Source: an uncultured Alphaproteobacteria bacterium
GTDB lineage: Bacteria; Pseudomonadota; Alphaproteobacteria; JAJFIK01
Reading direction: 5' to 3'
Length of the DNA stretch: 64,000 nt
NCBI GenBank assembly: GCA_964522525.1
Contig: CAZFWG010000001.1
Coordinates: forward strand, 36,341 to 100,340
The position numbers were made by a program, and so were the translations under genes. Of the stretch, positions 6,921 to 34,238 are shown in pieces; position 1 is the stretch's first letter, and every line of letters begins with the position of its first letter. The notes below the pieces were generated by a model that searched no databases, was not told where the DNA came from, and was given only the letters and a program-made list of their open reading frames with translations.

Positions 6921-7030
6921 TTTTATGAACTCCCTTGCAGCGCTTCGGCTTACGTATCATCGATTGACGCCAGCTTACGACGTACCGGAACAAAGGTGAA
7001 GACAAGGGGGGAAAGGGAACAACGGCCCCG

Positions 7031-11845: not shown

Positions 11846-12108
11846 GACGCGCGGTCCTCTTCTTCCGGGGCCATCGGGTCGAAAGGCACACCGATTTACT
11901 CGACCGGAGGACACTAAGCCTCTTATTTAAAGATTTGAACCACTCTGGGGGTCCATCCTTGGGGCTAAGACTATTGCTACGGTCATGAGCAGCCTTGTGG
12001 TCGTGACCCGGGGGTGGATGTCCGGCAAACTGTGTCGGGGTTTTCGCGAGGCGCGGGTGGCGCGTGTCGCTTCAAAAAATGGGTCGCAACGGGCGTGAAG
12101 GTGGCGTG

Positions 12109-12891: not shown

Positions 12892-12935
12892 TCCGCCTTT
12901 GACCCTTGATTGAGGAGAGGGTACACCGCACAGGG

Positions 12936-12966
12936 CCGGCCGGAGCCGCGTCGGCCTCGGCTTTTC
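12936..12966 (+). terminator. Putative rho-independent terminator after the DUF3011 gene
   Basis: Imperfect stem GCCGGAGC/GCCTCGGC (7 of 8 pairs including one G-U) with a 7-nt loop, followed by TTTT. Confidence 0.4.
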
Positions 12967-13082
12967 CCTTCATGGATGATCAAAAGGGCGGGCCCGGCGT
13001 TTTATGGTTGTTGAAAGCAAGGTCAGCCCTGCTGGATCGTGACAAGCAACAATAAAAAAAGCTGGAGACTTGAGGGGCTATC

Positions 13083-13095
13083 TGACTAATTGTCA
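13083..13095. promoter_or_regulatory. Near-palindrome TGACTAATTGTCA in the long AT-richer leader upstream of the second TonB-dependent receptor; candidate operator
   Basis: TGAC-N5-GTCA dyad lies about 195 bp upstream of the 13290 start, inside a ~400-bp lower-GC non-coding region. It matches no known box (not a Fur box). Confidence 0.2.
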
Positions 13096-13289
13096 GTCAG
13101 CGCAACACCGTTTTTCTGCGGCTTTTTCTCCTTTGGCATCCCTGTCTGACCTGCCCGTCACCTTTCTTCGTCTTCTCCTTTGCTGCAAAGCAGCATGAAA
13201 TTCCAGTTCACGGCCCCCTGACACGAATGTTACTCTGCTTGTTAACTATTGAGGGGACCGAAAAAAGCTATCTGGGGAGCGAGAAGCCA

Positions 13290-16226: not shown

Positions 16227-16358
16227 TTGCTGCCTGAAGATCGCCCTCGACTTTTCCGGCTTCTCGCATCCGTGTCCCTGTCCTAGACTGACTGGAAACC
16301 GGGTAATTCCGCTTCCCGGGCTAAGCGTGTCAGCGTGATGGCGATTATGGGGGTTCCT

Positions 16359-18269
16359 ATGGAAAAGCGACGTCTGTTTTGCCTTGCAGCCACGGGGCTC
16401 ATTCTTGGCCTGATGATCCGCGTGACGGATGCCGGGGCCGTTGATCCAGACCTTGATCGAACGGACGAGGCGATCGGGGCGGAATTTGAGGAATTGGGTG
16501 AGGCCCAGGAACATGTGCTCGTGCCCATGCGTGACGGGATCGGGCTTTCCACCAATATTTATCTGCCTAAGGACCGGGATGGTCCGGTACCGGCCGTGTT
16601 CTGGCGCACGCCCTATCGGTTCACGCCCTTGCGCACGACACACAAGCGCATGGCGCTCAAGGCCATGCGCCGGGGCTATGCGTTCGTGATTCAGAATGAG
16701 CGCGGCAAGTTCTTTTCGGAAGGGGAGTTCGAGATCCTCGGCTATCCGCAGACGGATGGTGTGGATGCCTTGGACTGGATCGCGGAACAGGACTGGTCCA
16801 ACGGTAAAGTGGGGACGCTCGGCTGTTCCTCGCCCGCGGAATGGCAGATGGCGCTTGCCGCCCAGGATCACCCGGCCCATGCCGCCATGGTGCCGATGGC
16901 GCCGGGGGCCGGCATCGGCAAGATGGGGCCCTATTGGGAGCAGGGAAACTGGTATCGGGGTGGGGCGGAGCAAATGTTCTATCCGCCCTGGCTCTATAGC
17001 GCCGTGCAAAGCCCGTTGCGCCCCCAATTGCCCAAGGGTCTGAGCCAGGAGGAGCGGGCGCGGCTCGCTTCCTACTACACGCTTGCGGCCAAGATGCCCG
17101 AGGTCGATTGGGCCAAGGCCATCCGCCATCTGCCCTTGAGCCGGATGATGCGGGAGGTGAAGGGGCCGCGCGGCACCTGGGATGATTATGTTTCGCGCAC
17201 GCCAGGCGATCCGGGTTGGCGTGAGGGTGGATTGTTCCATGACGACATGAAGATCGGTGTTCCGTCCTTGTGGATCTATTCCTGGTTCGACGTCTCCATC
17301 GGTCCCAATCTGGCGCTGTTCAACCATGCCCGCACCAACGCCACCGACCGTCAAACGGCGCGCGACCAGTTCATGGTGGTGGGCCCCAATCTCCATTGCG
17401 CGTTTTTCAGGGATAACAGCGATCTGACCGTTGGGGAACGGAAAATGGGCGATGCCAGTTTCGATTATGAGGAACTGATCTATGCGTTTTTCGACCGGCA
17501 TCTGAAGGGGGAGCGCAACGGGTTCCGCCGCAACAATCCGCCGGTGCGTTATTTCAATATGGGAGAGAACAAATGGCGGGAGGCGGATCAATGGCCGCCC
17601 GCCGGAACCAAGACTCGCACGCTCTATCTGACCAGCGAGGCCGGTGCCAATTCTCTCTATGGGGACGGGACGCTTGTCTCGGAAGCCCCCGAAACAGCGG
17701 CAGCGGACGGTTTCACCTATGATCCCATGAACCCGGTGCCCTCGAAGGGCGGCGGCATCTGTTGCATTGGCGATGCGGTGGAGGGCGGCGTCTTTGATCA
17801 GCGTCCCATTGAGGTGCGTCACGATGTCCTCGTCTACACGACGGCACCGTTGGAAAGCGACATGGACGTGACGGGACCCGTGGGTGTCACCCTCTATGTC
17901 TCGTCCGATGCACCGGACACGGATTTTACGGTGAAGCTGATCGATGTTCAGCCCGACGGCACGGCGTTCAATGTCGACGAAACGATCCAGCGCGTGCGCT
18001 GGCGGGAAGGGTATGACCAGGACCCGGTCTTCATGGCGGCGGGGGAGATCTATGAGGTCAGCATCCAGCCCATGGCCACGGCGACGCGGTTCAAGAAGGG
18101 CCACCGGATCCGTCTCGAGGTTTCCTCATCGAACTTTCCCCGCTTCTCCCGCAACCTGAACACGGGCGGCGCCAATTACGATGAAAGCGAACCGCGGGTT
18201 GCGAAAAACAAGGTGCATCACGGGCCGGACCATCCGTCCCGTCTGGTCCTGACGGTGGTTGAAGACTGA
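16359..18269 (+). CDS. CocE/NonD family hydrolase (Xaa-Pro dipeptidyl-peptidase S15-like alpha/beta hydrolase)
   Basis: Signal-peptide-like N-terminus MEKRRLFCLAATGLILG. CocE/NonD-like blocks (GYAFVIQNERGKF, DGVDALDWIAEQDWSNGKVGTLGCS) and a C-terminal beta-sandwich (GHRIRLEVSSSNFPRF). Start is uncertain; ATGs occur at 16335, 16347 and 16359. Confidence 0.7.
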   Translation: MEKRRLFCLAATGLILGLMIRVTDAGAVDPDLDRTDEAIGAEFEELGEAQEHVLVPMRDGIGLSTNIYLPKDRDGPVPAVFWRTPYRFTPLRTTHKRMALKAMRRGYAFVIQNERGKFFSEGEFEILGYPQTDGVDALDWIAEQDWSNGKVGTLGCSSPAEWQMALAAQDHPAHAAMVPMAPGAGIGKMGPYWEQGNWYRGGAEQMFYPPWLYSAVQSPLRPQLPKGLSQEERARLASYYTLAAKMPEVDWAKAIRHLPLSRMMREVKGPRGTWDDYVSRTPGDPGWREGGLFHDDMKIGVPSLWIYSWFDVSIGPNLALFNHARTNATDRQTARDQFMVVGPNLHCAFFRDNSDLTVGERKMGDASFDYEELIYAFFDRHLKGERNGFRRNNPPVRYFNMGENKWREADQWPPAGTKTRTLYLTSEAGANSLYGDGTLVSEAPETAAADGFTYDPMNPVPSKGGGICCIGDAVEGGVFDQRPIEVRHDVLVYTTAPLESDMDVTGPVGVTLYVSSDAPDTDFTVKLIDVQPDGTAFNVDETIQRVRWREGYDQDPVFMAAGEIYEVSIQPMATATRFKKGHRIRLEVSSSNFPRFSRNLNTGGANYDESEPRVAKNKVHHGPDHPSRLVLTVVED

Positions 18270-18904: not shown

Positions 18905-21658
18905 GTGATCATCTCCCACAAATACCAATTCATCTTCATTCGGACCAGCAAGACCGCTGGAACCAGCGTCGAGATCAGCCTGTCGCGGTTCTGCGGCCCC
19001 GACGATGTGGTGACGCCCCTGGACCCGGAAGAGGAATATGTCCGGCGGGACTTGGGTGTCCATCCCCGGCATTTTCTGCGTCCTCCGTTCCAGTTTCTGG
19101 CGGGCAACATGCTCAATCTCTTTCAGGTTCATCCCCCGTCCGGCCGCCTGCTGACGCGGATAGTGGGTCAGCGCTATTCCGCCTTCATGTCCGCCCGCGA
19201 GGTCAAAGCGCGGGTGGGCCCCGACATCTGGGACAGCTATACCAAATTCGCCATCGAACGGGACCCGCTCGACCGGTTGATGTCGTCCTACTATGCGGAT
19301 CTGGTGGCGGACCGGGTGCGGACCATCGACGAGTTCATGGCCCAGCCGACGCTTGAGTCCAATTTCGAGACCTATTCCCAGGACGGGGAGATCATCGTCG
19401 ACCGGATCCTGCGCTACGATCAGCTTAAAGAGGAGCTGCGGGACCTGTGTGGCCAGTTGGGCGTGCCCTTTGACGGCTGGCTGCCCCGCGCCAAGGCCAA
19501 CAACCGACGCAACAAGCGCAACTGGCGGGACTTGCTGGACGAGACGCAGATCGACCGGATCTGGTTTGAATGCGCGCGGGAATTCCGTGTCTTGAAGGAT
19601 TTGGGAGCGCCGCTTCCGGAGGAAGTCCTGCCGCTGGTCGAGCCGGCCCCGGCTCCCCGTCCCAAGGCGCCCGCAACCGAAGCGCCCCGATCGGAAACAC
19701 CAAGACCGGAAACACCCAGACCGCAGGCGCCCAAGCCGGAGAAAATCCGTCCGGCGGCACCAAAGACGCCGGCGCCCGAACCGGCCGCAACGAGACCAGC
19801 CGAAACCATCGCCAGGTCCGAGGGACCATCGGACCGGATCAATCGGAAGCCGGCCGCCGCCCCAAGCGCCGCGAAGCCGGTCCGCAAACCCGTGCGGGTG
19901 CGTCCCCAGGATCGGGCGCCCGAGCCCATTGTGGATCCTCTGCCGGCGCATCATCCGGGCCCGGCGCCCTCGGCGCCCCCATCCTCCGCGCGCGGCCAGA
20001 GCCCGCTTTCCGGGGAACTCCTGTCGGAAATCGACGCCCCCGCCCGGGATCCCGTGGTGCCCGAACCCGCGGTGGCGGAGGAACCCGCTCCCGTGCAAGG
20101 CACGCCAAAGGCGCGTCCCTGGCTTGATCCGGAACCGGCGGTGACCCCGTTGGAACGGGTCAATGGGCGGGGGGGCAAGCAAGACAAGACCGTCGCGTCC
20201 GCCGGCCGTCCGAAGACGCCGCGCCCGCCAAAGGAGCCCGTCGATCCGCTTGTGGATGTGCTGGCCGAGGTCAAGGCCGATCTGGTTCGCCCGAAGGGGC
20301 CCCTGCGGCCTGTTCCCTTGGACGAGGAGAAAGCGCCTCGGGATGGCGAGCCGTCACCGGCGGGGACCGTGTCCGAGGTGGCGGGCACGCAGGGCGGCGC
20401 CGTTGATCCCGCAGCCCCGAAATCCGCCGCCGGACCTTACGAAACCGTTGATAAGACCCTGGTCGATCACGATGCTGCGGAAATCGACGTGGCGGATGAC
20501 GGGCCCGATGGTTTTCCGGATGCGGCCGTCATGTCGAGCCTGCCGCAGGAGGAAACCGCGCCCCGTCCCCAGCCCGATGAGGGGCTGGACGCGGATGAAC
20601 TCCTCGGCTCGATCCGGGCCATTCAAGCGGTGCGCGCGGCTCAGGTGCCTGAAGGCGACGCCGTCTTGAGCTATGACGATGTGTGGCAGGGGGAGAAAAC
20701 CCCACAAGCGCCGCCGCCCGTTGAACCGGCGCCCCCCGCACGGGTCCCGGATCCGGAGCAGCGTCCGGCCCCGGTTCCCCCACAAGCTCCTGCAACGCAG
20801 CCGCCGCAAACGGACAGTGGATCGGCGCCTTTGTCCCCCTCCGCCATGATGGCCAAGGCCAAGGAAGGTCTTCCGAGCAAGGAATCTTTCCAGGCGCAGC
20901 TCAAGGCGGAGATCGAGAAATCACTGCGCAATGCCTTGAGCGAGGCTCTGGTGTCGCGCCGCATTGCCGAGGCCCTGCAAAAGCGGGTGGCCCGGAAAGA
21001 AGAACCGAGCGAAGCGGAAGAGGCGCTAAGCCAAATCGAGACAGCACCGGCGCCCCAAACTGAATCAAACGAGCCTCCCCTGTCCCGGGACGAGTCACCG
21101 TCAGCGCCCGTGCCATCGGTCCCCGAATCCAGTCCGGCCATCGCCATGCTGGAGCGTTTCCAGGAAAAATGGGCCCCGCTTTTGCGTCCGGAAACGGCAC
21201 GCGACCAAGGCAGCCAAAAGCTGAACGAGCCGCGCGCGCCGGCGCTTCCCGCCGCTTCGGGTTCGGGCCGCCCATCCGTTTCGCCGCCCCTGCAGGAAAC
21301 GCCGGTCGAGGCTTCGGCGAAGGCCGCGCCTGAGATCCAGATCGCCGCGCCGGATCCTCGACAGGTCCGGACCCAAACGGTGAAGGTCCCTCCCGCGCGC
21401 ACGCCGGGCATGTTCGATGAGACCGGGGCCGGGGGCCCGTTGACCCTGGCGCCGCCGGAACCGCCCGCTTGGCTCGATGATGACGATCTTTCCTGGTTGC
21501 CGGGATATGAATCCGACGACGAGGATGGTCCTTTCCCGGACGGGCTCGGCGGCCCGACCAGTGGTGCCGACAGCACAATGGTGACCACGGCGGCGCCCCC
21601 CGGCCAGACGGCCCCTGTGCCGGGTGTGCCCATCCTGCCGTCAACGCCCAGCAAATAA
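18905..21658 (+). CDS. NodH-like sulfotransferase domain (~250 aa) fused to a ~650-aa Pro/Ala/Glu-rich low-complexity tail
   Basis: N-terminus KYQFIFIRTSKTAGTSVE matches the PAPS 5'-phosphosulfate-binding loop of Sulfotransfer_3/NodH-type enzymes. The rest is compositionally biased (PAPEP/PRPETPRP-like repeats). It uses a GTG start. Codon usage is uniform across the whole ORF. Confidence 0.6.
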   Translation: MIISHKYQFIFIRTSKTAGTSVEISLSRFCGPDDVVTPLDPEEEYVRRDLGVHPRHFLRPPFQFLAGNMLNLFQVHPPSGRLLTRIVGQRYSAFMSAREVKARVGPDIWDSYTKFAIERDPLDRLMSSYYADLVADRVRTIDEFMAQPTLESNFETYSQDGEIIVDRILRYDQLKEELRDLCGQLGVPFDGWLPRAKANNRRNKRNWRDLLDETQIDRIWFECAREFRVLKDLGAPLPEEVLPLVEPAPAPRPKAPATEAPRSETPRPETPRPQAPKPEKIRPAAPKTPAPEPAATRPAETIARSEGPSDRINRKPAAAPSAAKPVRKPVRVRPQDRAPEPIVDPLPAHHPGPAPSAPPSSARGQSPLSGELLSEIDAPARDPVVPEPAVAEEPAPVQGTPKARPWLDPEPAVTPLERVNGRGGKQDKTVASAGRPKTPRPPKEPVDPLVDVLAEVKADLVRPKGPLRPVPLDEEKAPRDGEPSPAGTVSEVAGTQGGAVDPAAPKSAAGPYETVDKTLVDHDAAEIDVADDGPDGFPDAAVMSSLPQEETAPRPQPDEGLDADELLGSIRAIQAVRAAQVPEGDAVLSYDDVWQGEKTPQAPPPVEPAPPARVPDPEQRPAPVPPQAPATQPPQTDSGSAPLSPSAMMAKAKEGLPSKESFQAQLKAEIEKSLRNALSEALVSRRIAEALQKRVARKEEPSEAEEALSQIETAPAPQTESNEPPLSRDESPSAPVPSVPESSPAIAMLERFQEKWAPLLRPETARDQGSQKLNEPRAPALPAASGSGRPSVSPPLQETPVEASAKAAPEIQIAAPDPRQVRTQTVKVPPARTPGMFDETGAGGPLTLAPPEPPAWLDDDDLSWLPGYESDDEDGPFPDGLGGPTSGADSTMVTTAAPPGQTAPVPGVPILPSTPSK

Positions 21659-21767: not shown

Positions 21768-23579
21768 ATGATACGGAGGCTGTGGGCCGGCTGGCTGGGC
21801 TGGATCGACCGTTTCGCGGTCGAAGGCGCCGGTGAGGACTTCGTCGCAATCGTCCGTTACCGGACTTTGGCGACGACCAGCCTGCTGATTACCCTCCTCA
21901 TGCTGCCGAGCCCCGTCCGAGGCTACTTCGTGCTTGACCTGCCGGACTGGGTCGTGGGCTATCATGTCCTGTGTCTGCTCATGGTCGCGGCCGCCATGCC
22001 CACGATGGTCTTGACACGACACATTATATGGCCGACGACACAGATTGTGGCCGGCTTATATCTTTCCGTGATCGAAACAGGCCTGCGGGCCGGCGGTCTT
22101 GACGGCGCCACATCCCAGATCCTGGCTATTCTTCCCCTGGCCGCCGGTCTGATGCTGGGTATGCGCTATTGCCTCATTTGTGGTCTGATCGTTGTCTTGA
22201 CTTATGGCTTTTTGTTCTATGTTTCCGTCAGTCTTCCCGCCGCACCAATGGCCTCACCGTCCAGCGGGCCGGGCAGACAACTCCTCTACTATGTGATCGT
22301 CACCCTCGGCATCACCGGTTTCACCTTTGCGCTTCTTCTGATCCTGAAACATGCTGTCCGCTCTCTCGAGCAGGCCAGGGACATCGCCGATGCGGCCAAT
22401 CGGCAAAAATCCGAGTTCCTCGCCAATATGAGCCATGAAATCCGGACACCCATGAACGGCGTTCTGGGACTGCTCCATATTGCCCGTGAGAAGAACGCAT
22501 CGCCGGACGTCGGCGACCTGTTGGACGACGCCCATGCAAGTGCGGGTCTGCTGCTGGACATCATCAATGACATCCTGGATTTCTCGAAGCTGGAAGCTGG
22601 CTGTATGGCCATCCACGCCCGGCCCTTCGCGTTCAAGGAGACGGTCCGGCGGGTCGCCGCCCTCGTGAAGCCGAAAGCGGTCGAGAAGGGGCTCGATTTC
22701 CGGATCTCCTTTGACGCTGACATCCCCCCGTGCCTCATCGGAGACGAGACGCGACTTCAGCAGATCCTTTTCAATATCCTGGGCAACGCCGTCAAATTCA
22801 CGGATCAGGGCCGGGTCGATCTGCGGGTCACCGCGTTTGAGATCCAGGCGGAGCACGTCTCGCTGCGTATGGAGGTTGAGGATACGGGGCCCGGCCTTTC
22901 CGATTTCGACCGATCAAGGGTGTTTGAACGGTTTACCCAAGTCGATTCATCGGTGACTAAGACCAAAGGCGGCACGGGCCTGGGCCTTGCGATCTGCAAG
23001 CAGTTGGTGGATCTCATGGACGGGCGGATCGGTGTGGCCAGCCGGGAGGGCGAGGGGAGCTTGTTCTGGATAGAGATCACCCTGCCCATCGATCATGTCG
23101 GGGACATTCAACATCAGGACGAGACCAGCGTTGCATCGGGGGGACGGGCACTCCGGATATTGGTCGCCGAAGACAATATGATCAATCAGAAGATCATCGT
23201 TCTGATGCTGGAGAGTCTTGGGTTTGAACCGCCGATCCTCGTGGAGGACGGTCAGGCAGCCCTCGATATGCTGGGGACGAATGAGTTTGACGTGGCCCTT
23301 CTTGATATTCAGATGCCGACCAAGGACGGGTTGACCGTCGCCCGAGAGGCGCGTGCCCGATTGCAGAACGTCCCGCCCCTGATTGCCGTGACCGCCAATG
23401 CGATGGCCGGGGATGAAGAACGCTATTTGGACAATGGTTTTGACGGTTATGTCTCAAAACCCTTGAGTGCCCAGGCCCTCTGGACGGAGATCACCCGGGT
23501 CACTTGCGCATCGCGCAGCGTCGCTCAGCCGGGCAGGTCGCACAGTCAAGATCCGCCTGGAAGCCGCTCCGTTGCATGA
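21768..23579 (+). CDS. Hybrid sensor histidine kinase/response regulator (membrane-embedded sensor, HisKA, HATPase_c, C-terminal receiver)
   Basis: About six N-terminal TM helices. H-box ANMSHEIRTPMNG. N/G boxes LGNAVKFT and GGTGLGLAICK. Receiver domain has LVAEDN...DVALLDIQMP...VSKP. Confidence 0.8.
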   Translation: MIRRLWAGWLGWIDRFAVEGAGEDFVAIVRYRTLATTSLLITLLMLPSPVRGYFVLDLPDWVVGYHVLCLLMVAAAMPTMVLTRHIIWPTTQIVAGLYLSVIETGLRAGGLDGATSQILAILPLAAGLMLGMRYCLICGLIVVLTYGFLFYVSVSLPAAPMASPSSGPGRQLLYYVIVTLGITGFTFALLLILKHAVRSLEQARDIADAANRQKSEFLANMSHEIRTPMNGVLGLLHIAREKNASPDVGDLLDDAHASAGLLLDIINDILDFSKLEAGCMAIHARPFAFKETVRRVAALVKPKAVEKGLDFRISFDADIPPCLIGDETRLQQILFNILGNAVKFTDQGRVDLRVTAFEIQAEHVSLRMEVEDTGPGLSDFDRSRVFERFTQVDSSVTKTKGGTGLGLAICKQLVDLMDGRIGVASREGEGSLFWIEITLPIDHVGDIQHQDETSVASGGRALRILVAEDNMINQKIIVLMLESLGFEPPILVEDGQAALDMLGTNEFDVALLDIQMPTKDGLTVAREARARLQNVPPLIAVTANAMAGDEERYLDNGFDGYVSKPLSAQALWTEITRVTCASRSVAQPGRSHSQDPPGSRSVA

Positions 23580-23604: not shown

Positions 23605-24354
23605 CTAGAGCCGTCGAACGCTTTCGGGATCAATCCGAAAACGGAGAATGGCGCCGGCCTGTTCCAATTGGCCGGATGCCTCGATGGGATCCGCCACATA
23701 CCGCAGGAGCGAGTCCGGCATCGGATTGCCATCCGGATCGGTGATCAGAGCATTCGTGAAGCCGTTTTCGTGGCGCACAACGAAATGGGGCGGCACGCCC
23801 CCGATCAGGCAGAGCGTGGCGCAGGCCTTGTGAGCCTTCCCCGCGCCGGGCTTCATGACACCCAGAAAGCATTTGCTGTCGACAATTTCCCCACGGATCG
23901 TCCGAGGTCCAAGGCTTTCGATGAGGAGGGGCGTGACGCCCGACGTGCCGAAGGCGGTAATCGCCTCGTCGCCGTCAATGAACTCGATCGAGACGCGCCC
24001 CTGGCGCTCGATATAGAAGCCCTGAACCCGAACACGCTGGTCTTCGAGACCTTCGACCCGATCCTCCACGCCCAGTTTCCCAGTGGAAATCAGAGTGGCG
24101 ACTTTCTCGACACCGTCTTCCGTGTAGAACAGCATCGGGTAGGGGATGCGGCGCAGGGTTCCTTCGAAGGTCCGCGCCTCATCGCTGAGCCACCGACCGG
24201 TGCCGGGATCCTGCTGGGCGCCCGCGAGAAGGACGGCAAGGCCCGCGCTGGCCCCGAACAGGAATGCGGTCAGGATCATCATGGAGATGGCAAGACCGCG
24301 TGGCATGGGGGCAAGGCCGATATAGAACGGGCTTTCCGATGTCTTCTCTGCCAT
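23605..24354 (-). CDS. Membrane-anchored hypothetical protein with a C-x15-C-x3-C motif; last gene of the Rieske operon
   Basis: One N-terminal TM helix (AISMMILTAFLFGASAGLAVLLA). Contains CFLGVMKPGAGKAHKACATLC. GGAGGGA RBS before the ATG at 24354. Lies 10 nt downstream of the FRD-Rieske gene. Confidence 0.5.
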   Translation of the reverse strand: MAEKTSESPFYIGLAPMPRGLAISMMILTAFLFGASAGLAVLLAGAQQDPGTGRWLSDEARTFEGTLRRIPYPMLFYTEDGVEKVATLISTGKLGVEDRVEGLEDQRVRVQGFYIERQGRVSIEFIDGDEAITAFGTSGVTPLLIESLGPRTIRGEIVDSKCFLGVMKPGAGKAHKACATLCLIGGVPPHFVVRHENGFTNALITDPDGNPMPDSLLRYVADPIEASGQLEQAGAILRFRIDPESVRRL

Positions 24355-24366
24355 CACTCCCTCCGT

Positions 24367-25425
24367 CTACGCGCCATTCGGTGAAGCTGGGATCACGGCG
24401 GGTGCCTCCGGTGTGCCCGGCGGATTGGCTTTGGCATTGACCCAGACGATGCCGTCCTGAATGCCCACGCGATAGGTCGCAATCTTTTCCTGGTAGGGCG
24501 GCGGGGATTGCCCGCTTTCCGGCAGATATTGGTAGCCGTGCCAGGGACAGGTGATGCAGCCGTCGACGACGCGCCCTTCACCCAGGGGGCCGTTCTGATG
24601 GGCACAGACATTGCTGACGGCGGCGATCTTTCCGTCATATCGGAAGACGGCGATGCTGTCTTCGGGCCGGTGGATGATCTTGGCACGGTTGTTCGCGATA
24701 CTGTCGATGGGACCGACCTCGATCCACTCCTCGTCGATCACGGGGGAAACCCGGTCCGCGAAGGCCCGGCTCGTGCTGGTGATCAGGTGAAGCCCGCCGA
24801 CCCAGATGACGCTGCCCGCCAAAAGAGCCCAATAGGTCATGGACACTTCGTCCTGAAGAATGCCGAGTGCGATATGGACGCACAATGCCGCATAGGCGAC
24901 ATAGACGAACATATGAAGCGCCTTCCACAAGGGCGGCGACAGATTGGCGAGCCAGAAATCATGACTGGTCGCCGCCATCACGAACAAGACGATCAGCGCG
25001 AAGAACCCGAAGACTTCAAAGGGAATGACGGCGGTGGTCGAATAGTCCGCACTGGTGGCAAACAGGGAGACCAGAGGGCTGAGCACGCCGAAGCCGTGAT
25101 ACCATCCGAGGGCGATCACAAAATGGAAAAGCGCGATGAAGAAGGTGACCACACCGAAATGGCGCCGATTGTACAGCAGCGGCAGGAAGACCGTATTGAG
25201 TCGCGCCAGCGGACCGATGGACAGGATGATGGTCAGCATCAGGAAGGCACAGGTACCGAGCGCCCGGATCGCCATGATCGGCGGGCTGATCTCGTGGCCG
25301 GGTTCGGCGGTCAGAATGGAGACGACCATGAAGGTGACGAGATAGAGAACCACGCCCAGGCCCAGAAACAGATCATAGATCTTCTTGTTCCGGTTCCAGA
25401 GAACCATATTGTATCCGACGGCCAT
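24367..25425 (-). CDS. Fusion of a ferric-reductase-like (FRD/MsrQ-type) di-heme transmembrane domain with a C-terminal Rieske [2Fe-2S] domain
   Basis: Six predicted TM helices with two H-x12-H pairs on separate helices (RRHFGVVTFFIALFH and LHMFVYVAYAALCVH), the bis-His heme-b ligation pattern of FRD domains. The C-terminus has Rieske boxes CAHQNGPL and CPWHGYQY. Strong GGAGGGAG RBS. Confidence 0.7.
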   Translation of the reverse strand: MAVGYNMVLWNRNKKIYDLFLGLGVVLYLVTFMVVSILTAEPGHEISPPIMAIRALGTCAFLMLTIILSIGPLARLNTVFLPLLYNRRHFGVVTFFIALFHFVIALGWYHGFGVLSPLVSLFATSADYSTTAVIPFEVFGFFALIVLFVMAATSHDFWLANLSPPLWKALHMFVYVAYAALCVHIALGILQDEVSMTYWALLAGSVIWVGGLHLITSTSRAFADRVSPVIDEEWIEVGPIDSIANNRAKIIHRPEDSIAVFRYDGKIAAVSNVCAHQNGPLGEGRVVDGCITCPWHGYQYLPESGQSPPPYQEKIATYRVGIQDGIVWVNAKANPPGTPEAPAVIPASPNGA

Positions 25426-25468
25426 GGTGTCTCCCTCCGATCCGCGGTCCTCCGCGGTCTGTCAGCAG

Positions 25469-25651
25469 TCAGGCAAATCCGAGTGGGTCGGCAGAAAGGG
25501 GCATGCTCTGGGACCGCACGCCCAAACCTTCTTCCAGGGGCACGACCGGTGTTTCCCGGCGCGCCTCATAGGCGAGGATGAGGGCGAGCAGGGTCAAGGG
25601 CAAAAGGATCAGCCAGATGATCAGATGGGCACGTCTCTGGGCGCGCTTCAT
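25469..25651 (-). CDS. Small membrane protein (60 aa)
   Basis: Single TM helix LIIWLILLPLTLLALILA after a basic N-region. Starts 3 nt after the stop of the 77-aa gene. GGGGAAGG RBS. Confidence 0.4.
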   Translation of the reverse strand: MKRAQRRAHLIIWLILLPLTLLALILAYEARRETPVVPLEEGLGVRSQSMPLSADPLGFA

Positions 25652-25654
25652 GGT

Positions 25655-25888
25655 TCAAGCCTTCCCCTCTCGGGCGGGAATCCCGCCGCGAATCCAATGG
25701 TAAAGCAGAACAGGCCACAAGGCCACGCTTCCCGGGATGAGCAGGAGACGGACGGAAAGCTTGGCGCCCTTGGCGTTGGGGTCGACGCGGCCGATGCCGA
25801 TCGTGACAAAGATGACGGCGAAGATCAGTCCCGCCGCGAAATAGAGGGCCAAGGCGCTGACGATCATTTCCGCCGTTTGAATGTCCAT
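25655..25888 (-). CDS. Small two-TM membrane protein (77 aa)
   Basis: Two hydrophobic helices. GGAAAGG RBS 6 nt upstream. Tightly spaced within the operon. Confidence 0.45.
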   Translation of the reverse strand: MDIQTAEMIVSALALYFAAGLIFAVIFVTIGIGRVDPNAKGAKLSVRLLLIPGSVALWPVLLYHWIRGGIPAREGKA

Positions 25889-25917
25889 GATGCCTTTCCC
25901 GGTGCCGTTCGGTTGTC

Positions 25918-26511
25918 TCAGGAAGGAAGCGGCAGCGCTTCGTTCCGTTCAAGGTGTAATGCGTTGCGGCTTCCCGTTGTCCGCCAGAGGGCGGCCGCCA
26001 GAAGCACGCCGTATCCGGCCTGTATCCAGGGCGAAAGACCCGCCCATTGCCGCGCGGTCTCGGGCGCCATGCCCAGCAGCATGAACAGGCCCCCCGATTG
26101 ATCCGTACCGACACAGTGGCCGAGCAGGCCGGGGCCCACGGCGATGACGAGCCCGAACGCCGCCAGGACCATGAGGCTTGCCCGGTTGGTTTCGATGGCG
26201 CGCGCCCATGCAAGACCCATCAACACCGCAAGGCCCACGGACAGAACCACCTGGGTCAGGGTCACCGCATAGGAACGTTCCACGGGCATGCGGGCGGCAA
26301 GGTCGATCTCAAAAACGGGCAGGGCCCAGATCACTGCAGGATCCAAGACATGGAGCGTGGGCCAGGCCCGCCACAGGGGGGCGTCGAAAGCAAGCCGCAG
26401 GCTGCCGATTTCGCCATAGACAAAGAGCGCCGCCACCAGACCCGGCAGGGTGAAAACCGCATAAAGCGCCAACAGCACAAGGCCGAGGCGCACGGTCAGG
26501 CGCTCCGTCAT
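25918..26511 (-). CDS. Integral membrane protein (~197 aa, 5-6 TM helices), function unknown
   Basis: Start MTERLTV, whose ATG overlaps the TGA of the upstream Rieske-TPP gene (ATATGA). The upstream 39 codons of the ORF look non-coding. Confidence 0.5.
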   Translation of the reverse strand: MTERLTVRLGLVLLALYAVFTLPGLVAALFVYGEIGSLRLAFDAPLWRAWPTLHVLDPAVIWALPVFEIDLAARMPVERSYAVTLTQVVLSVGLAVLMGLAWARAIETNRASLMVLAAFGLVIAVGPGLLGHCVGTDQSGGLFMLLGMAPETARQWAGLSPWIQAGYGVLLAAALWRTTGSRNALHLERNEALPLPS

Positions 26512-28511
26512 ATCAGTTCCACATCCTGCATGATCTCGATCAAGGCGGGCTTGTCGCTCGCCAGCCCCTTGGCGAAAGCATCCTTCAGTTCCTCGCGCTG
26601 CGTGACCCGGATGCCGAGGCCTCCGCACAGGGTCGCATAGTCCGCAAAGGAAGGGTTATGCAGACTGGTCTGCCAGACCGGCCATTGTCCGGCCCGCTGT
26701 TCCTTGGAAATCTTGCCCAGTTCGCTGTTGTTGAGCAGGATATGGGTGATGTTCATGCCGTATTTCACGGCCGTGGTGAATTCGGCCATATACTGACCAA
26801 ACCCGCCATCGCCACTGATCGACACCACTTTGCGGTCGGGGCCGCCCGGCGCCGTGCCGGCCTTGACCGCGCACCAGGCGCCAAGTGCCGCCGGAAAGGC
26901 AAAGCCGATCGAGCCCAGATAGCCGGACATCAAGACGGCCTGGTGTTTGGGCTCGAAATAGCGGCCGAAGGAATAGGTGTTGTTGCCCACATCGACGGCG
27001 ATGACGGCATCATCCGGTATCGTATCATTGAGAACGTCGAACACCGCGGCCGCGGAAAGGCCCTTGCCCAGATCATCCGTCAGGCGGCGTTTTTTCTCCT
27101 CCCGCCAGATGCGCCAGCGTTCGGCGATTTCATCGCGCTGATCCACCCGGTCGGCGGTACCGTCAAGGGCGCCGCACATCAGATCGGCCGTGACCCCCAC
27201 TTCGCCCCAGACCGGCGCATGGACCATGTGAAACTTGCCCAGCGCCATCTGGTCGAAATCGACCTGGATCAGGATCTTGGAGGTGGAAATACCGGTGTGG
27301 TCGGAAAACGAGGCCCCGAAAACACAGATCACGTCGGCTTCATTCATGAACCAACTGGCGATCGGCGTCCCGCTGCGCCCCAACACGCCGGCGGCGAGGG
27401 GGTGGGCGTCGGGGATCTGGCCCTTGCCCTTGAAGGTCGTTAGGACAGGCGCGTTCAGACGCTCGGCCAGGGCGATGATCTTGTCCATGGCCGTGCGCGC
27501 GCCATAGCCCACGACGATGATCGGCCGTTTGGCGGCGTTCAGGAAACGCATGGCCTGATCGAGGGCGTCGGGCGCCGGGGCGATATGGGGGTCGCCGATC
27601 CGGCCCTTGGGGTTCGAGGGCCGGGCTTTTTCATCCGCCTTCTGAACCTGGACTTCATCGGGGAAGATCAGATGGGCCACGTCGCGTTTGATGGTGGCGT
27701 GTTTGAGCGCGAGCGTCATCAGCTCCGCATGATCCGAGTTCTGCAAGGTCGTCTGGCTGAAGGTGGCCACGGGCGCGAAGGCGGAGGCCAGATCGATTTC
27801 CTGGAAGGCGCCGGGGCCGAAAACCTGGGTGTTGACCTGGCCGGTCAAGGCCAGGACCGGGGCCCGGTCGACCTTGGCATCCCATAGGCCCGTGAGCAGA
27901 TTGGTGGCGCCCGGCCCCGCGATCGCCAGACAGGCGGCGGGCTTGCCCGACAATTTGGCATAGCCGGAACAGGCAAAGGACGCCGCCCCTTCATGGCGAA
28001 TGCCGATATAGCTGAGATGGCCCGCGTCCTCTTCCCGGCGCAGGGCATCGGCCAGACCCAGATTGGAATGGCCCACCATGCCGAAGACATGGGTGACCCC
28101 CCAACGGGTCATGGTCTGGGCCATGATATCGCTGACCGTCGTTTCATGGGGTCCGCGCCCCGGCACGCCGACATAGATCCCGTCTTCCCGTTCCTCCACG
28201 GGAAAGGTGTCGATGCCGTCATCATGACCGCCGGGCGAGGTGCCGTCCCGGGGGTCAAAGTCCCAGCCATGCCAGGGGCAGCGCAACCAGCACCGGCCTT
28301 CGGCGCCGGTCTCGATCGAGCCTTCGCCCAAGGGACCACCCTGGTGGGGGCAGCGGTTGTCGACCGCCCAATGACGGCCCTCGAATTTGGACAGGGCCAC
28401 CGATGTGGTACCGGCGGTCGCGCTCTTGACGCGGCCCTCGTCCAACTCATCGAGCTCGGCCACCTTGTGCCATTCGAGGTCCGGGTTTGGGGCGGCGCCT
28501 TTGGTGCTCAT
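26508..28511 (-). CDS. N-terminal Rieske [2Fe-2S] domain fused to a thiamine-pyrophosphate-dependent enzyme (acetolactate synthase/pyruvate oxidase family)
   Basis: Rieske boxes CPHQGGPL and CPWHGWDF in the first ~110 aa. Then TPP_enzyme_N (GVTHVFGMVGHSNL), central and C-terminal TPP-binding domains (GSIGFAFPAALGA, ISGDGGFGQY). 667 aa. Confidence 0.75.
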   Translation of the reverse strand: MSTKGAAPNPDLEWHKVAELDELDEGRVKSATAGTTSVALSKFEGRHWAVDNRCPHQGGPLGEGSIETGAEGRCWLRCPWHGWDFDPRDGTSPGGHDDGIDTFPVEEREDGIYVGVPGRGPHETTVSDIMAQTMTRWGVTHVFGMVGHSNLGLADALRREEDAGHLSYIGIRHEGAASFACSGYAKLSGKPAACLAIAGPGATNLLTGLWDAKVDRAPVLALTGQVNTQVFGPGAFQEIDLASAFAPVATFSQTTLQNSDHAELMTLALKHATIKRDVAHLIFPDEVQVQKADEKARPSNPKGRIGDPHIAPAPDALDQAMRFLNAAKRPIIVVGYGARTAMDKIIALAERLNAPVLTTFKGKGQIPDAHPLAAGVLGRSGTPIASWFMNEADVICVFGASFSDHTGISTSKILIQVDFDQMALGKFHMVHAPVWGEVGVTADLMCGALDGTADRVDQRDEIAERWRIWREEKKRRLTDDLGKGLSAAAVFDVLNDTIPDDAVIAVDVGNNTYSFGRYFEPKHQAVLMSGYLGSIGFAFPAALGAWCAVKAGTAPGGPDRKVVSISGDGGFGQYMAEFTTAVKYGMNITHILLNNSELGKISKEQRAGQWPVWQTSLHNPSFADYATLCGGLGIRVTQREELKDAFAKGLASDKPALIEIMQDVELI

Positions 28512-28689
28512 CAGGGACGGTCCTTTCGGTCGTTTCTTGACCCTTCACAGATTATGTTTCCCACGGTCATGCCCCGGGCGTCACCAGTTTACCATTGTAA
28601 AAAATGCGCGATCACAGAAAACAACTTGTCGTAAGCGGTTGAGACGGTCGAGCATGGCGCTCCCGGCGGTCACAAGGAGAGAATGCCCC

Positions 28690-30306
28690 ATGAAGAATCG
28701 CATCGCGATCGCCCAATGGGATGAATTGAAAGATCGGGATCCGACCTATGCCTGTGTGGCGAATGTGGATCTTGTGATCATTCGTTACGACAATCAGGTA
28801 TCGGTCCTTTACGGACGATGTCTGCATCGGGGTGCTCTCCTGGCCGATGGGCATATTCGCGGTGAGGACCTGATCTGTGGTGTACATAATTGGGATTATC
28901 GCTACGACACGGGCGTCAGCGCCTACAACAATGAAGAGGTCCTGCAGAAATTCACGACCGAGATCGATTCGGGCTATGTTTATGTGGATGCGGACGAGAT
29001 CGCGGCGTGGGAAAAGGACCATCCCCAGCCCTATGACCGTCAGGCCTATCTTGGTCTCTATGCGGATACGCAAGGGACGCCGGACGAACCGCACACCGCG
29101 TTCATCCAGGAACTCGCCAATCATGGCCTGAAACGGGTGGGCCACCACGGGCCCATGGCGGCCATGGGCGTGCCCTTTCACACCCTTCCCCAGTGGGACG
29201 ACATTCAATTCGTCACGGCCCAGTTGCACCGTTTCCCGCTGCTTGATGAGGATCCGGTGGCGAGCGACGTGGTGATCGGCCCCAAGGCCAGACGGCCCCT
29301 CAAACTCGACATTCCCTTGCTGGTCTCGGATATGAGCTTCGGGGCGCTCTCCCAGGAAGCCAAGCTCGCCCTCGCCAAGGGCGCGGACGACGCGGGCACG
29401 GGCATCTGCTCGGGCGAGGGCGGCATGCTGCCCGAGGAGCAGGAAGCCAATCGGCGCTATTTCTATGAGCTGGCCTCGGCCCGTTTCGGCTTTTCCTGGG
29501 ACGCGGTTGGTAAGGTTCAGGCTTTCCATTTCAAGGGAGGTCAGGGCGCCAAGACCGGCACCGGCGGCCATGTGCCGGGCAGCAAAGTCACGGGCAAGGT
29601 GGCGCAGGTGCGCGGTCTTCAGGAGGGGGAGCCCGCGGTCTCGCCGGCCCGTTTTCCCGACTGGACCGAGCTGCGCCAGATCCGGGATTTCGCCGAGGAA
29701 GTGCGCGAGCGCACCGGCGGTATTCCCATCGGCTACAAGCTTTCCGCGCAGCAGGTGGAAAAGGACATCGACGCGGCGCTCAAGGTCGGTGTCGACTACA
29801 TCATCCTCGACGGCCGGGGCGGCGGCACCGGTGCCGCGCCGACCCTGTTTCGGGACCACATCGCCGTGCCCACGATTCCGGCCCTGGCCCGGGCCCGGCG
29901 CCATCTCGACCATCTGGGCTGTGCCCATGTCACGCTGATCGTGACCGGGGGCCTGCGCACGCCGGCCGATTTCGCCAAGGCGCTGGCGCTGGGGGCCGAC
30001 GCCATTGCCCTTTCCAACGCGGCGATGATGGCCATCGGCTGTCTGGCCATGCGGGCCTGCAACACCAACAACTGTCCCGTCGGTATTACCTCCATGAAGG
30101 ACCATCTCAGGGCGCGCCTTGAGATCGAGGCCTCGGCCCGTCGATTGCACAATTTTTTCGAAGCCTCGGTCGATCTTATGAAGGTAATGGCAAGGGCCTG
30201 CGGTCATCATCATTTGGGGGACTTCTGTCTTGAGGACTTGGTCACCTGGAAGGATGACGTGGCAAAGCTGACGGGCGTTCCCTATGGCGGCGTGGGGCGC
30301 TCATAG
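28690..30306 (+). CDS. N-terminal Rieske-type [2Fe-2S] domain fused to an FMN-binding glutamate-synthase-family (GltS FMN) domain
   Basis: Rieske-like boxes CLHRGALL and CGVHNWDY. Then the Glu_synthase-type FMN/Fe-S barrel (SDMSFGALS, GEGG, KVAQ..GQGAKTGTGGHVPG, ILDGRGGGTGAAP). AAGGAGAG RBS 9 nt before the ATG at 28690. The 101 in-frame codons upstream were rejected. Confidence 0.75.
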   Translation: MKNRIAIAQWDELKDRDPTYACVANVDLVIIRYDNQVSVLYGRCLHRGALLADGHIRGEDLICGVHNWDYRYDTGVSAYNNEEVLQKFTTEIDSGYVYVDADEIAAWEKDHPQPYDRQAYLGLYADTQGTPDEPHTAFIQELANHGLKRVGHHGPMAAMGVPFHTLPQWDDIQFVTAQLHRFPLLDEDPVASDVVIGPKARRPLKLDIPLLVSDMSFGALSQEAKLALAKGADDAGTGICSGEGGMLPEEQEANRRYFYELASARFGFSWDAVGKVQAFHFKGGQGAKTGTGGHVPGSKVTGKVAQVRGLQEGEPAVSPARFPDWTELRQIRDFAEEVRERTGGIPIGYKLSAQQVEKDIDAALKVGVDYIILDGRGGGTGAAPTLFRDHIAVPTIPALARARRHLDHLGCAHVTLIVTGGLRTPADFAKALALGADAIALSNAAMMAIGCLAMRACNTNNCPVGITSMKDHLRARLEIEASARRLHNFFEASVDLMKVMARACGHHHLGDFCLEDLVTWKDDVAKLTGVPYGGVGRS

Positions 30307-30453: not shown

Positions 30454-30747
30454 ATGCGGATCTGGTACGAAATCGAAGACGCTTTGGAGACCTGCTTCGA
30501 AGATGTGGAGCGGGCGATCCATACGGAATGTCGGTTCGAGGTTTGGGAGTGGTGTGCCCTGGAAAGCGGCGCCGAGGCGAGCCTTGTGGGGCGCTTCTCA
30601 AACCGCCGACTTGCCCAGCTGTTCATTTCCCGGATGGAAAGCGAAGTCGAGGAAACGGGCCGGGGCGCCCATTATCCCCGTGACGACCGTCAGCGGGCGC
30701 TCGATGCTTTCCATGCCGTCAGTCCTACCGACAGCACCGTCCACTGA
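30454..30747 (+). CDS. Hypothetical acidic protein (97 aa)
   Basis: GGAGGG RBS upstream of the ATG. No recognisable motif. Lies downstream of, and co-oriented with, the Rieske-GltS gene. Confidence 0.4.
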   Translation: MRIWYEIEDALETCFEDVERAIHTECRFEVWEWCALESGAEASLVGRFSNRRLAQLFISRMESEVEETGRGAHYPRDDRQRALDAFHAVSPTDSTVH

Positions 30748-33035: not shown

Positions 33036-33908
33036 CTAGCCCACTTCTGGGGGTATCTCTTTGATCGCCTCTTCAAGCTGGGAAAAGCTTGGCTGGACTT
33101 CCGTGGGCACATTTCCGCGCCCGATTTCCACAGAGATTTGCGGCGCGTTGCCGTGGAGATGGGCAACGAGCACATCCCGGACAATCAAATAATAGTGGGT
33201 GTCCTCGCCCAGGATGGCCTTCAGCCGGGCCGCCATGGGACCGACGAAACCATAGGCCAGGAACACGCCCAGAAACGTCCCGACCAGGGCGCCGCCGATC
33301 ATCTTGCCGAGCACGGCCGGCGGTTCGTTGATCGCCGACATGGTCTTGATGATCCCCAAAACGGCGGCCACGATCCCAAGGGCCGGCAGGCCGTCGGCCA
33401 TGTTCTGCATGGCATCGGCGGAGGCTTCGGTCTCGTGGTGGTGCTTGTCGAGTTGCTTCTCCATCACGTCCTCGACCTGATGGGGGTCCTCGAAATTCAT
33501 CGTCATCATGCGGAGGGTATCGGTGACGAAGTGAAGCACGTGATGATCCTTAAGGATCTTGGGATAGCGCGAGAAGATCGTGCTTTCTTCGGGGTTTTCC
33601 AGATGCGCCTCGAGGGCGATCACGCCCTTGGTCTTGATGGTCTTGGTCAGGAGGAAAAGCAGGCAGAGAAGATCGGTGTAGTCCTGCGCCTTCCATTTCG
33701 GGCCTGCGAATACCTTGCCGAAACCGCCCAGTGTCGCCTTCACATTGGCCATGCCGTTGGAGATAAGGAAGGCCCCGACGGCGGCGCCGCCGATCATCAT
33801 CAATTCAAAGGGGGCCGCCTTGATGATCACGTCGAAGTGACCGCCGGCGAGCATGAAGCCGCCGAAAACCATCACGAACACGACAATAATACCGACAATC
33901 GGCAGCAT
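33036..33908 (-). CDS. motA: Flagellar motor stator protein MotA
   Basis: MotA/TolQ/ExbB proton-channel architecture. N-terminus MLPIVGIIVVFVMVFGGFMLAGG, cytoplasmic loop, C-terminal TM3/TM4 (LGIVAAVLGIIKTMSAINEPPAVLGKMIGGALVGTFLG). Start chosen at the second ATG (33908). The ORF-track ATG at 33953 is an alternative. Confidence 0.75.
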   Translation of the reverse strand: MLPIVGIIVVFVMVFGGFMLAGGHFDVIIKAAPFELMMIGGAAVGAFLISNGMANVKATLGGFGKVFAGPKWKAQDYTDLLCLLFLLTKTIKTKGVIALEAHLENPEESTIFSRYPKILKDHHVLHFVTDTLRMMTMNFEDPHQVEDVMEKQLDKHHHETEASADAMQNMADGLPALGIVAAVLGIIKTMSAINEPPAVLGKMIGGALVGTFLGVFLAYGFVGPMAARLKAILGEDTHYYLIVRDVLVAHLHGNAPQISVEIGRGNVPTEVQPSFSQLEEAIKEIPPEVG

Positions 33909-34238
33909 CACGCACCCCCACCCCAGACCCGGGTGCGTTGATCGTTCCGTCACCCCCGAGCGTGAGAGCGCCCGCCGGCAAAAGACCTCTTCGGATCGTG
34001 CCGGCCGTGGCGCTCACTCGCCCGCCAGTATCTCCGGTCACCCTTAATGTCGGATGAAATGGCGGGCCCTTGGCGCGTGCCCTTGAGGGCTGAGGGCTGA
34101 GGGCTGAGGGAGGGGGCACCCCGGGACCGGGCATCCATAAGGGTTGCCATCGCTGCTTGACGCCATGGGGTTTTCCGTTGTCTGACTGGTCCGGAGGATT
34201 TCTCCTTTCCCGCCGCCCCGCGCAGGGTACGATGCTTC

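Follow-up and report, generated by a model that had tools for sequence, protein, structure and literature searches.

To our knowledge, flavin mononucleotide (FMN)/[3Fe-4S] barrels of the glutamate-synthase type are understood only in the giant glutamate synthase (GOGAT) enzymes. The present work concerns a gene at 28690..30306 (+) in a 64,000-nucleotide stretch of DNA from an uncultured Alphaproteobacteria bacterium (the whole stretch is termed the window below), in whose product such a barrel is joined to a Rieske domain; gene and protein are termed here Rieske-GltS. Its closest described counterpart is the synthase domain of glutamate synthase (GltS; 1ea0, 7mfm, 1ofd), which is the best match in the Protein Data Bank (PDB) by sequence as well as the best match by fold, and the two have in common the FMN-binding TIM barrel, the CX5CX4CP motif, the FMN-phosphate motifs and a set of Q, K and R residues. 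Yet the identity is only ~25-28%, and in Rieske-GltS a fused Rieske domain stands in place of the GltD or ferredoxin partner. The type 5 CDGSH iron-sulfur domain (CISD) proteins, with tandem CDGSH (Lin et al. 2011, PMC3174974), and their Fer4_19/CDGSH variants carry a small iron-sulfur domain ahead of a barrel that is 57-64% identical; the N-terminal cluster domain of type 5 CISD is CDGSH, where Rieske-GltS has a Rieske domain, and both are uncharacterised. Flavocytochrome b2 (L-lactate:cytochrome c oxidoreductase), ranked directly behind GltS in the Foldseek search, provides an analogy of working principle, in that an N-terminal one-electron carrier precedes an FMN TIM-barrel dehydrogenase acting on an alpha-substituted acid. 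It differs in its haem b5 carrier, in the absence of a [3Fe-4S] cluster and in belonging to a different FMN-barrel family, at 14-17% identity.

Two further systems resemble the proteins encoded beside Rieske-GltS, namely a Rieske-fused thiamine pyrophosphate (TPP) enzyme, Rieske-TPP, and a membrane protein joining a ferric-reductase-type domain (FRD) to a Rieske domain, FRD-Rieske. PoxB of E. coli (pyruvate:ubiquinone oxidoreductase) couples oxidative decarboxylation to the delivery of electrons to the membrane, and the TPP_N/M/C core of Rieske-TPP aligns with it over its full length; PoxB has a C-terminal lipid- and membrane-binding peptide that is absent in Rieske-TPP, whereas Rieske-TPP adds an N-terminal Rieske domain. 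FRD-Rieske can be likened to the MsrQ-MsrP and NOX/FRE systems, in which a dihaem domain with six transmembrane (TM) segments links a cytoplasmic donor to an extracytoplasmic acceptor. The likeness to MsrQ-MsrP extends to an adjacent gene for a putatively extracytoplasmic partner, here termed P250, but the donor in FRD-Rieske is the fused Rieske domain, and the partner is a Cys/Met/His protein of the oligonucleotide/oligosaccharide-binding (OB)-fold type, not a molybdoenzyme.

The recurrent company of these two Rieske-fused redox proteins makes it probable that the Rieske-GltS family takes part in an electron-transfer pathway not described so far. The gene by itself is an ordinary representative of an uncharacterised family whose architecture is already present in databases with thousands of members, and it is the three-Rieske module that constitutes the interesting part of the locus.

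The open reading frame (ORF) of Rieske-GltS comprises 538 amino acids (aa) and a stop codon. Its ATG at 28690 is preceded by a ribosome-binding site (RBS), AAGGAGAG, at 28675-28682 with a spacing of 7 nt. A public protein (P0001) with 100% identity is likewise called at 538 aa, and the 43 aligned homologues measure 535-552 aa, with a consensus that opens MKK at the Met of 28690. An in-frame TTG at 28387 would open an ORF of 639 aa, and a preliminary description of this DNA, made from the letters alone, had named a true start there, with additional domains, as one way in which its interpretation could fail; the other was that the Cys/His boxes of the Rieske-like domain are not metal ligands. 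Over 28387-28511, the longer frame overlaps the 5' end of the divergent TPP gene in antisense orientation. With the RBS ahead of the ATG, the lengths and MKK consensus of the homologues and this antisense overlap, the TTG start is rejected. All seven cluster ligands are invariant in the 43 homologues, the Cys/His boxes included. An erroneous gene model of either kind is thus hardly credible; the gene is real, and its product is a cytoplasmic iron-sulfur flavoenzyme in which the TM scan found no TM segment.

Both of its domains are detected by Pfam far above the curated cutoffs, with Rieske (PF00355) at aa 5-75 (E=1.8e-11; 44.2 bits against 20.3) and Glu_synthase (PF01645) at aa 195-505 (E=1.5e-88; 297.9 bits against 20.4). 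The fusion of a Rieske-like domain to an FMN domain of the glutamate-synthase family, as first described, is thereby borne out, and the four motifs quoted at the time are all reproduced on translation (Table 1). The accompanying label of a GltS central-domain-like barrel is correct as regards the FMN/[Fe-S] barrel, which PF01645 recovers, and has to be dropped as regards the central domain, for which PF04898 reaches only 17.9 bits, under its cutoff of 22.8. The Rieske ligands follow the pattern C44-x-H46 -x16- C63-x-x-H66, the two boxes being separated by 16 residues where ~15-17 are expected. The boxes CLHRGA and CGVHNW lack the second Cys pair of the high-potential bc1/b6f type (CxHxGC...CxCH), on which account the domain is assigned, from its ligand pattern, to the ferredoxin/NirD-like subtype; its nearest named relatives in NCBIfam and PDB matches are dioxygenase ferredoxins and NirD.

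The catalytic module aligns to the GltS alpha structures 1ea0 and 7mfm with E ~1e-30 to 1e-32 in the PDB sequence search, and Foldseek places GltS first, followed by the barrels of flavocytochrome b2 and glycolate oxidase. In the alignment with 1ea0, C451, C457 and C462 correspond to Cys1102, 1108 and 1113, which we take to be the [3Fe-4S] ligands and which served to check the numbering offset. They lie in CLAMRACNTNNCP, the CX5CX4C(P) [3Fe-4S] motif of glutamate synthase, which the preliminary description had overlooked. GRGGGTGAAP and TGGLRTPADF align to the GltS FMN-phosphate motifs. Q285, K288 and R308, which like C451, C457, C462 and the four Rieske ligands are invariant in the 43 homologues, align to the residues equivalent to Q969, K972 and R992 of Synechocystis ferredoxin-dependent GltS (Fd-GltS); the roles of these residues and the numbering offset follow the GltS structure papers. 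It is nearly certain, as far as motifs and alignments can tell, that a Rieske [2Fe-2S] cluster and an FMN/[3Fe-4S] barrel are combined in one chain.

No amidotransferase, central or GXGXG domain is found in the protein by Pfam; among the conserved neighbours at 80 loci there is no subunit of these types and no GltD, nor does the cluster contain a GltD-type gene. The NCBIfam equivalog NF008730 (GltB/Fd-GltS) gives 127.9 bits against a cutoff of 1047, over profile positions 865-1162 of 1490. Because these domains are missing and the score falls so far below the cutoff, Rieske-GltS is not a bona fide glutamate synthase. Assignment as MgsC (N-methylglutamate synthase subunit C) was considered and rejected, there being no MgsA/MgsB or methylamine genes in the window around the gene or among the conserved neighbours. 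The earlier reading as an oxidoreductase of unknown substrate agrees with the domains, the ligands and the homologue alignment.

The family is both widespread and highly conserved. A protein search gave at least 8000 scored candidates, all significant; the 120 matches listed are full-length, have the same architecture and are nearly all 71-74% identical, under names such as 'glutamate synthase-related protein' and 'Rieske 2Fe-2S domain-containing protein'. A scan of species-representative genomes gave at least 543 loci, of which 80 were kept for analysis (denoted below by L and a number). These belong to Alpha-, Beta- and Gammaproteobacteria, Nitrospina/Nitrospinaceae, Nitrospirota/Nitrospirales, Planctomycetota and Gemmatimonadota, as well as Candidatus Poriferihabitaceae, a sponge-associated lineage; cultured genera among them are Roseibium, Hoeflea, Nitratireductor, Ahrensia, Ruegeria, Roseivivax and Pelagibius, and Sulfidibacter (Acidobacteriota) likewise has a Rieske-GltS gene. 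Identity across phyla is ~70%, as between Nitrospina and Alphaproteobacteria. Given that the family forms essentially one cluster at 50% identity and that the neighbour-joining tree mostly tracks taxonomy, with few lineages misplaced, this level of identity points to strong constraint more than to recent transfer.

The nearest paralogues have a catalytic module (aa 127-535) that is 57-64% identical and other iron-sulfur modules ahead of the barrel, comprising tandem CDGSH, Fer4_19+CDGSH or CDGSH+Fer4_19+Rieske; one paralogue lacks such a module. Among more distant relatives, the barrel is found with a C-terminal rubrerythrin, with CCG+rubredoxin or in an archaeal GXGXG+Fer4 arrangement. The combination of CDGSH with a glutamate-synthase domain has been catalogued, as an architecture only, under the name 'type 5 CISD' (PMC3174974; PMC5859297). 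On this pattern of fusions, the Rieske domain may be read as one of a set of one-electron ports that can be exchanged on a shared FMN/[3Fe-4S] core. The gene surroundings of the CDGSH-fused and the distant Rieske-fused paralogues gave no further indication, as their contigs were too short or uninformative.

Gene context was surveyed at the 80 loci by tblastn with the window neighbours and by de novo clustering of all ORFs, and neighbours were counted at the 43 loci with at least 6 kb on either side of Rieske-GltS. Rieske-TPP is present at 25 of these (61-70% identity to the window protein), FRD-Rieske at 19 (43-52%), P250 at 18 (30-38%) and s77, a small membrane protein, at 16 (35-46%); a Na+/H+ exchanger, absent from the window, also occurs at 18. 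TPP and FRD genes are found together at 15 loci, TPP alone at 10 and FRD alone at 4. Over all 80 kept loci, Rieske-TPP lies next to Rieske-GltS in 38. All genes point the same way in a single string, NaH-GltS-TPP-s77-(small ORF)-FRD_Rieske-P250, in Roseibium and several other genera; in other lineages the blocks of the module are permuted or divergent, and in Sulfidibacter a GltS-TPP gene pair is found. The core of the module (GltS, TPP, s77, FRD-Rieske and P250) is complete in the window, at 23605-30306, where it is arranged divergently. The divergent Rieske-TPP operon had been recognised from the outset, and Pfam confirms the neighbour as Rieske plus TPP_enzyme_N/M/C; FRD-Rieske, the third Rieske fusion of the locus, is new to the present analysis. 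The layout of the window recurs exactly in L081, an 81% relative, with GltS on the plus strand and the TPP, 211-aa, 74-aa, 50-aa, FRD_Rieske and 262-aa proteins on the minus strand. Other repeated neighbours are DUF5996, DUF1622 and an extracytoplasmic function (ECF) sigma factor with a ~100-aa zf-HC2 (HxxxCxxC) anti-sigma protein; tblastn found none of these, and no Na/H exchanger, in the 64-kb window.

A different kind of pairing, at 4445-9200 (+), was observed in L046, a Nitrosomonas metagenome-assembled genome. After Rieske-GltS comes a second, membrane-anchored GltS-like protein of 29% identity, beside which are encoded a TPP enzyme of the ALS type (PRK08322, 903 bits) and an aldehyde dehydrogenase, so that a GltS-like barrel is here paired independently with an enzyme resembling 2-oxo-acid decarboxylases.

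The adjacency of Rieske-GltS to the Rieske-TPP operon might be incidental, the enzyme working alone with unlinked partners, as could be argued from 14 of the 43 full-flank loci, where TPP, FRD and P250 are all missing within 10 kb; L001, at 79% identity the closest relative in the genome scan, is one of them, as are most Woeseiaceae and Nitrospina members. Against this, the adjacency recurs, with varying gene order, in Alpha-, Beta- and Gammaproteobacteria, Planctomycetota, Nitrospirota and Acidobacteriota. Promoter motifs speak to the same question. The exact sequence TGTAACC-N15-GCATC(T) occurs ahead of the operon in nine related loci (among them L027, L032, L039, L042, L055, L072, L079 and L007), where it stands beside the ECF sigma/HxxxCxxC anti-sigma pair. 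In L042 and L055 exact copies of TGTAACC-N15-GCATCT face both divergent directions, and in L042 (9907, +; 7490, -) they lead into GltS and TPP. This shared motif in both directions is good evidence, at the level of promoter sequence, that the module would form a common dedicated regulon in some Alpha- and Gammaproteobacteria, and it also counts against incidental adjacency, which is considered very improbable. Rieske-GltS is likely to be functionally linked to its neighbouring genes.

In the window itself, the intergenic region between the divergent genes had been proposed as a shared promoter region to be searched for a common regulator site. The search gave nothing of the kind, as the region contains no sigma-70-like match, no inverted repeat and no conserved block in common with L081, the relative of the same layout. 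The sequence CGTAAGC-N15-GCATG at 28630-28656 departs from the ECF motif at 3 positions; with that many mismatches the window holds 20 matches against 38 expected, not above chance, and the match is absent from L081, so that it is taken as a chance occurrence. Elsewhere, a copy of the motif with 1 mismatch was observed in L079 (Ruegeria) at 7456, ahead of an ORF (6437-7414, -) which by eye resembles FolE2, the zinc-independent GTP cyclohydrolase IB, in features such as KGINMSR and CPCS. This single case hints at a possible tie to zinc limitation. An additional ECF-motif site lies near a small membrane protein in L076, an anecdotal hint of a regulon.

The partner proteins of the window have their own peculiarities. 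The best NCBIfam match of Rieske-TPP is pyruvate oxidase PRK08611 (385 bits, under its cutoff), and the protein remains under the curated cutoffs of all named TPP families; its best PDB match, end-to-end, is E. coli PoxB (3eya, 4.9e-61). The gene for a 197-aa membrane protein that follows has a homologue only in L081 (49% identity, same position) and is thus an insertion into the operon specific to this lineage. A short reading frame with the motif MKRxHRxxHxxIW lies between s77 and FRD in many loci, where L081 has the 50-aa gene; in the window this is s60, and both s77 and s60 look like accessory subunits. FRD-Rieske gives partial matches to MsrQ and MamZ in NCBIfam, and the His pairs of ferric-reductase/MsrQ/NOX domains are conserved in it across 25 sequences, with invariant Rieske ligands. 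Six hydrophobic segments are found in it, five of them over the threshold of the TM scan, and its N-terminus is positively charged; with six TM segments and the N-terminus inside, the C-terminal Rieske domain is predicted to be cytoplasmic. A Rieske-fused FRD has been listed before, as an architecture (M4) only (PMC3591440). In P250 the residues K161, C162, G165, M167, P169, G170, H175, C178 and C182 are invariant. Between the Rieske domains of TPP and FRD (CxHQxGPLGEG...CPWHG) the identity is 33%.

According to the reading preferred here, to which we assign a rough probability of 45%, Rieske-GltS would be a glutamate-type amino-acid/2-oxo-acid oxidoreductase whose electrons leave one by one, via [3Fe-4S] and the Rieske cluster, for the membrane module. 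As the anatomy of the protein suggests, the Rieske cluster would take over from GltD or ferredoxin the role of exchanging single electrons with the [3Fe-4S] cluster, giving an intramolecular wire Rieske <-> [3Fe-4S] <-> FMN <-> substrate. The substrate would probably be an alpha-amino or 2-oxo (imino) acid of the glutamate/2-oxoglutarate type. Acting as a dehydrogenase, the enzyme would oxidise the amino acid at FMN, release 2-oxo acid and ammonium and pass the two electrons singly through [3Fe-4S] to the Rieske cluster. The PoxB-like enzyme would likewise oxidise a 2-oxo acid, possibly the product of the Rieske-GltS step, and both enzymes would feed the Rieske domain of the FRD membrane protein, whose two haems would carry the electrons outward to a periplasmic P250, as in MsrQ-MsrP or NOX. 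A sequence glutamate -> 2-oxoglutarate -> succinate would account for the GltS-TPP pairing and is weakly echoed by the gene pairing in L046; glutamate itself is a tentative choice of substrate.

The oxidative direction, which is given an even chance, is favoured on several grounds. Ferredoxin-type Rieske clusters have a potential of about -150 mV, and FRD-family proteins carry electrons outward. The fusions to rubrerythrin, an electron sink, need the barrel as electron input; the outward movement of electrons by FRD proteins agrees with the 4 loci that hold GltS and FRD without TPP; and the TPP partner resembles PoxB, an oxidative decarboxylase. Furthermore, the GltS FMN and [3Fe-4S] potentials (about -240 and -280 mV; PMC8097209) lie below that of a ferredoxin-type Rieske cluster.

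The opposite direction would make Rieske-GltS an ammonium-dependent glutamate synthase independent of NAD(P)H and ferredoxin. In this wiring Rieske-TPP would oxidise pyruvate or another 2-oxo acid, and electrons would flow from Rieske to Rieske, to [3Fe-4S], to FMN and finally to 2-iminoglutarate formed from 2-oxoglutarate and free ammonium. The retention of GltS catalytic residues and cofactor motifs is in keeping with such a role, as is the TPP enzyme being the tightest partner, often directly downstream. Pyruvate is a very powerful electron source when oxidatively decarboxylated; the cation/proton antiporter that stands directly upstream in 18 of the 43 loci could, speculatively, supply or balance ammonium. 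However, there is no glutaminase or ammonia-tunnel partner, the FRD-Rieske/P250 module and the 4 GltS+FRD loci without TPP are left unexplained, the rubrerythrin-fused relatives imply a barrel that donates electrons, and a ferredoxin-type Rieske cluster is a weak reductant for FMN/[3Fe-4S] at -240/-280 mV. Synthesis in this sense is judged quite unlikely.

The wiring of the preferred reading could also serve another substrate, such as an imino, oxo or N-alkyl amino acid or a stress metabolite, in a stress-induced system of detoxification or repair. Several observations may be cited for this possibility. The substrate loop is unlike that of GltS, and the conserved residues are shared throughout the superfamily; the ECF sigma and ~100-aa HxxxCxxC anti-sigma genes suggest a stress regulon in several lineages; the function-unassigned DUF5996 and DUF1622 co-occur with the module; and JGI names some members (2 of the 120 matches listed) 'methylamine-glutamate N-methyltransferase subunit C'. 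On the other hand, no conserved genes of the MgsA/MgsB type or of any other pathway are found nearby, the Q/K/R triad that places the 2-oxo-acid carboxylate in GltS is invariant, and the GltS-like, TPP and aldehyde dehydrogenase genes of L046 fit amino-acid to oxo-acid chemistry. A different substrate is accordingly regarded as somewhat unlikely.

A number of points weigh against the preferred assignment as a glutamate-type oxidoreductase feeding the membrane module. The partner-less loci, L001 among them, have already been mentioned. The Q, K and R residues are common to the whole PF01645 superfamily, archaeal true glutamate synthases included, so that the active-site residues do not fix the substrate, and the substrate loop reads TGTGGH here, within QGAKTGTGGH, and PGEGGQ in GltS. 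We know of no precedent for Rieske-to-Rieske transfer between proteins, and the Rieske domain of GltS shares only 24% identity with those of TPP and FRD. P250 is probably periplasmic, on the basis only of its TM helix and fold analogies. The AlphaFold2 model of Rieske-GltS is moderate (pLDDT 75.7) and its linker disordered, with low confidence over aa ~113-126 and on to about 161. A search of the full-text literature found no paper on Rieske-GltS or Rieske-TPP fusions or on the operon, and no experimental study of any member of the Rieske-GltS family.

The fullest version of the scheme is a 'Rieske relay', in which three Rieske-fused proteins would work independently of NAD(P)H and quinones, coupling the oxidation of amino and 2-oxo acids in the cytoplasm to electron export across the membrane to a periplasmic Cys/Met/His OB-fold protein, under induction by the ECF/zinc-anti-sigma pair in several lineages, with glutamate -> 2-oxoglutarate -> succinate as an example route. 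Taken jointly, these elements are unlikely to be right in every part.

Table 1. Positions of Rieske-GltS domains and motifs, partner genes and other genes in the window
Feature	Position	Strand	Basis or remark
Rieske-GltS, N-terminal Rieske [2Fe-2S] domain, aa 1-112	28690..29025	+	PF00355
Rieske-GltS, catalytic module aa 127-538, glutamate-synthase FMN-binding TIM barrel	29068..30303	+	PF01645, 1ea0/7mfm alignment, Foldseek
CLHRGALL, aa 44-51	28819-28842	+	Translation; C44/H46 within 28819-28827
CGVHNWDY, aa 63-70	28876-28899	+	Translation; C63/H66 within 28876-28887
GQGAKTGTGGHVPG, holding loop QGAKTGTGGH	29539-29580	+	Translation
GRGGGTGAAP, FMN-phosphate motif	29812-29841	+	Translation
CLAMRACNTNNCP, [3Fe-4S] motif C451-X5-C457-X4-C462-P	30040-30078	+	Translation
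Divergent intergenic region, 178 bp	28512..28689		RBS AAGGAGAG; weak ECF-promoter-like match
Rieske-TPP, 667 aa, N-terminal Rieske + PoxB/pyruvate-oxidase-like TPP enzyme	26508..28511	-	Pfam
197-aa membrane protein, ATG overlapping TPP stop	25918..26511	-	No Pfam match
s77, 77 aa, two TM segments	25655..25888	-	22-23 loci beside FRD gene, 35-46% identity
s60, 60 aa, single TM, motif MKRxHRxxHxxIW	25469..25651	-	Small-ORF conservation
FRD-Rieske, six-TM ferric-reductase-type domain + C-terminal Rieske	24367..25425	-	Ferric_reduct 1.7e-11, Rieske 6.3e-16
P250, 249 aa, N-terminal TM anchor + OB-fold-like beta domains	23605..24354	-	
97-aa ORF directly downstream of Rieske-GltS	30454..30747	+	GC content at third codon positions 0.70; no Pfam match
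Hybrid histidine kinase, convergent on operon end	21768..23579	+	HisKA + HATPase_c + receiver
917-aa protein	18905..21658	+	Only an N-terminal sulfotransferase-like match
S15 X-Pro dipeptidyl peptidase	16335..18269	+	
TonB-dependent receptor	13227..16160	+	Syntenic with L001
MotA homologue	33036..33953	-	

Some of the remaining genes of the window have counterparts at related loci. The 97-aa ORF occupies the same position in L081 (72%) and L001 (69%) and is absent from more distant loci, and the hybrid histidine kinase has weak counterparts (26-36% identity) in three related loci. Scans of the whole 64 kb found no Rfam family and no tRNA. In L081, a gene combining animal-haem-peroxidase and HemolysinCabind domains (12081-14351, -) lies two genes downstream of Rieske-GltS; no counterpart of it was found among the genes examined around the window cluster. 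Proteins of this type have been implicated in extracellular superoxide formation and Mn oxidation in Roseobacters.

Rieske-GltS represents a compact, function-unassigned form of the glutamate-synthase-type barrel with a built-in Rieske electron port, and it is among the best-conserved proteins of comparable size in a wide range of aerobic, mostly marine bacterial lineages. Its linkage to PoxB-like and MsrQ/NOX-type partners suggests a possible route, bypassing NAD(P)H and quinones, for electrons from amino and keto acids to the periplasm. If such a route exists, it would bear on periplasmic oxidative-stress repair or metal reduction and on the extracellular electron or superoxide output of marine heterotrophs and nitrite oxidisers, and also on the swapping of iron-sulfur modules (Rieske, CDGSH, Fer4_19 and rubredoxin) onto one catalytic core. 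Cultured carriers exist in Roseibium, Ruegeria, Hoeflea, Ahrensia and Sulfidibacter, which makes the family easy to test.

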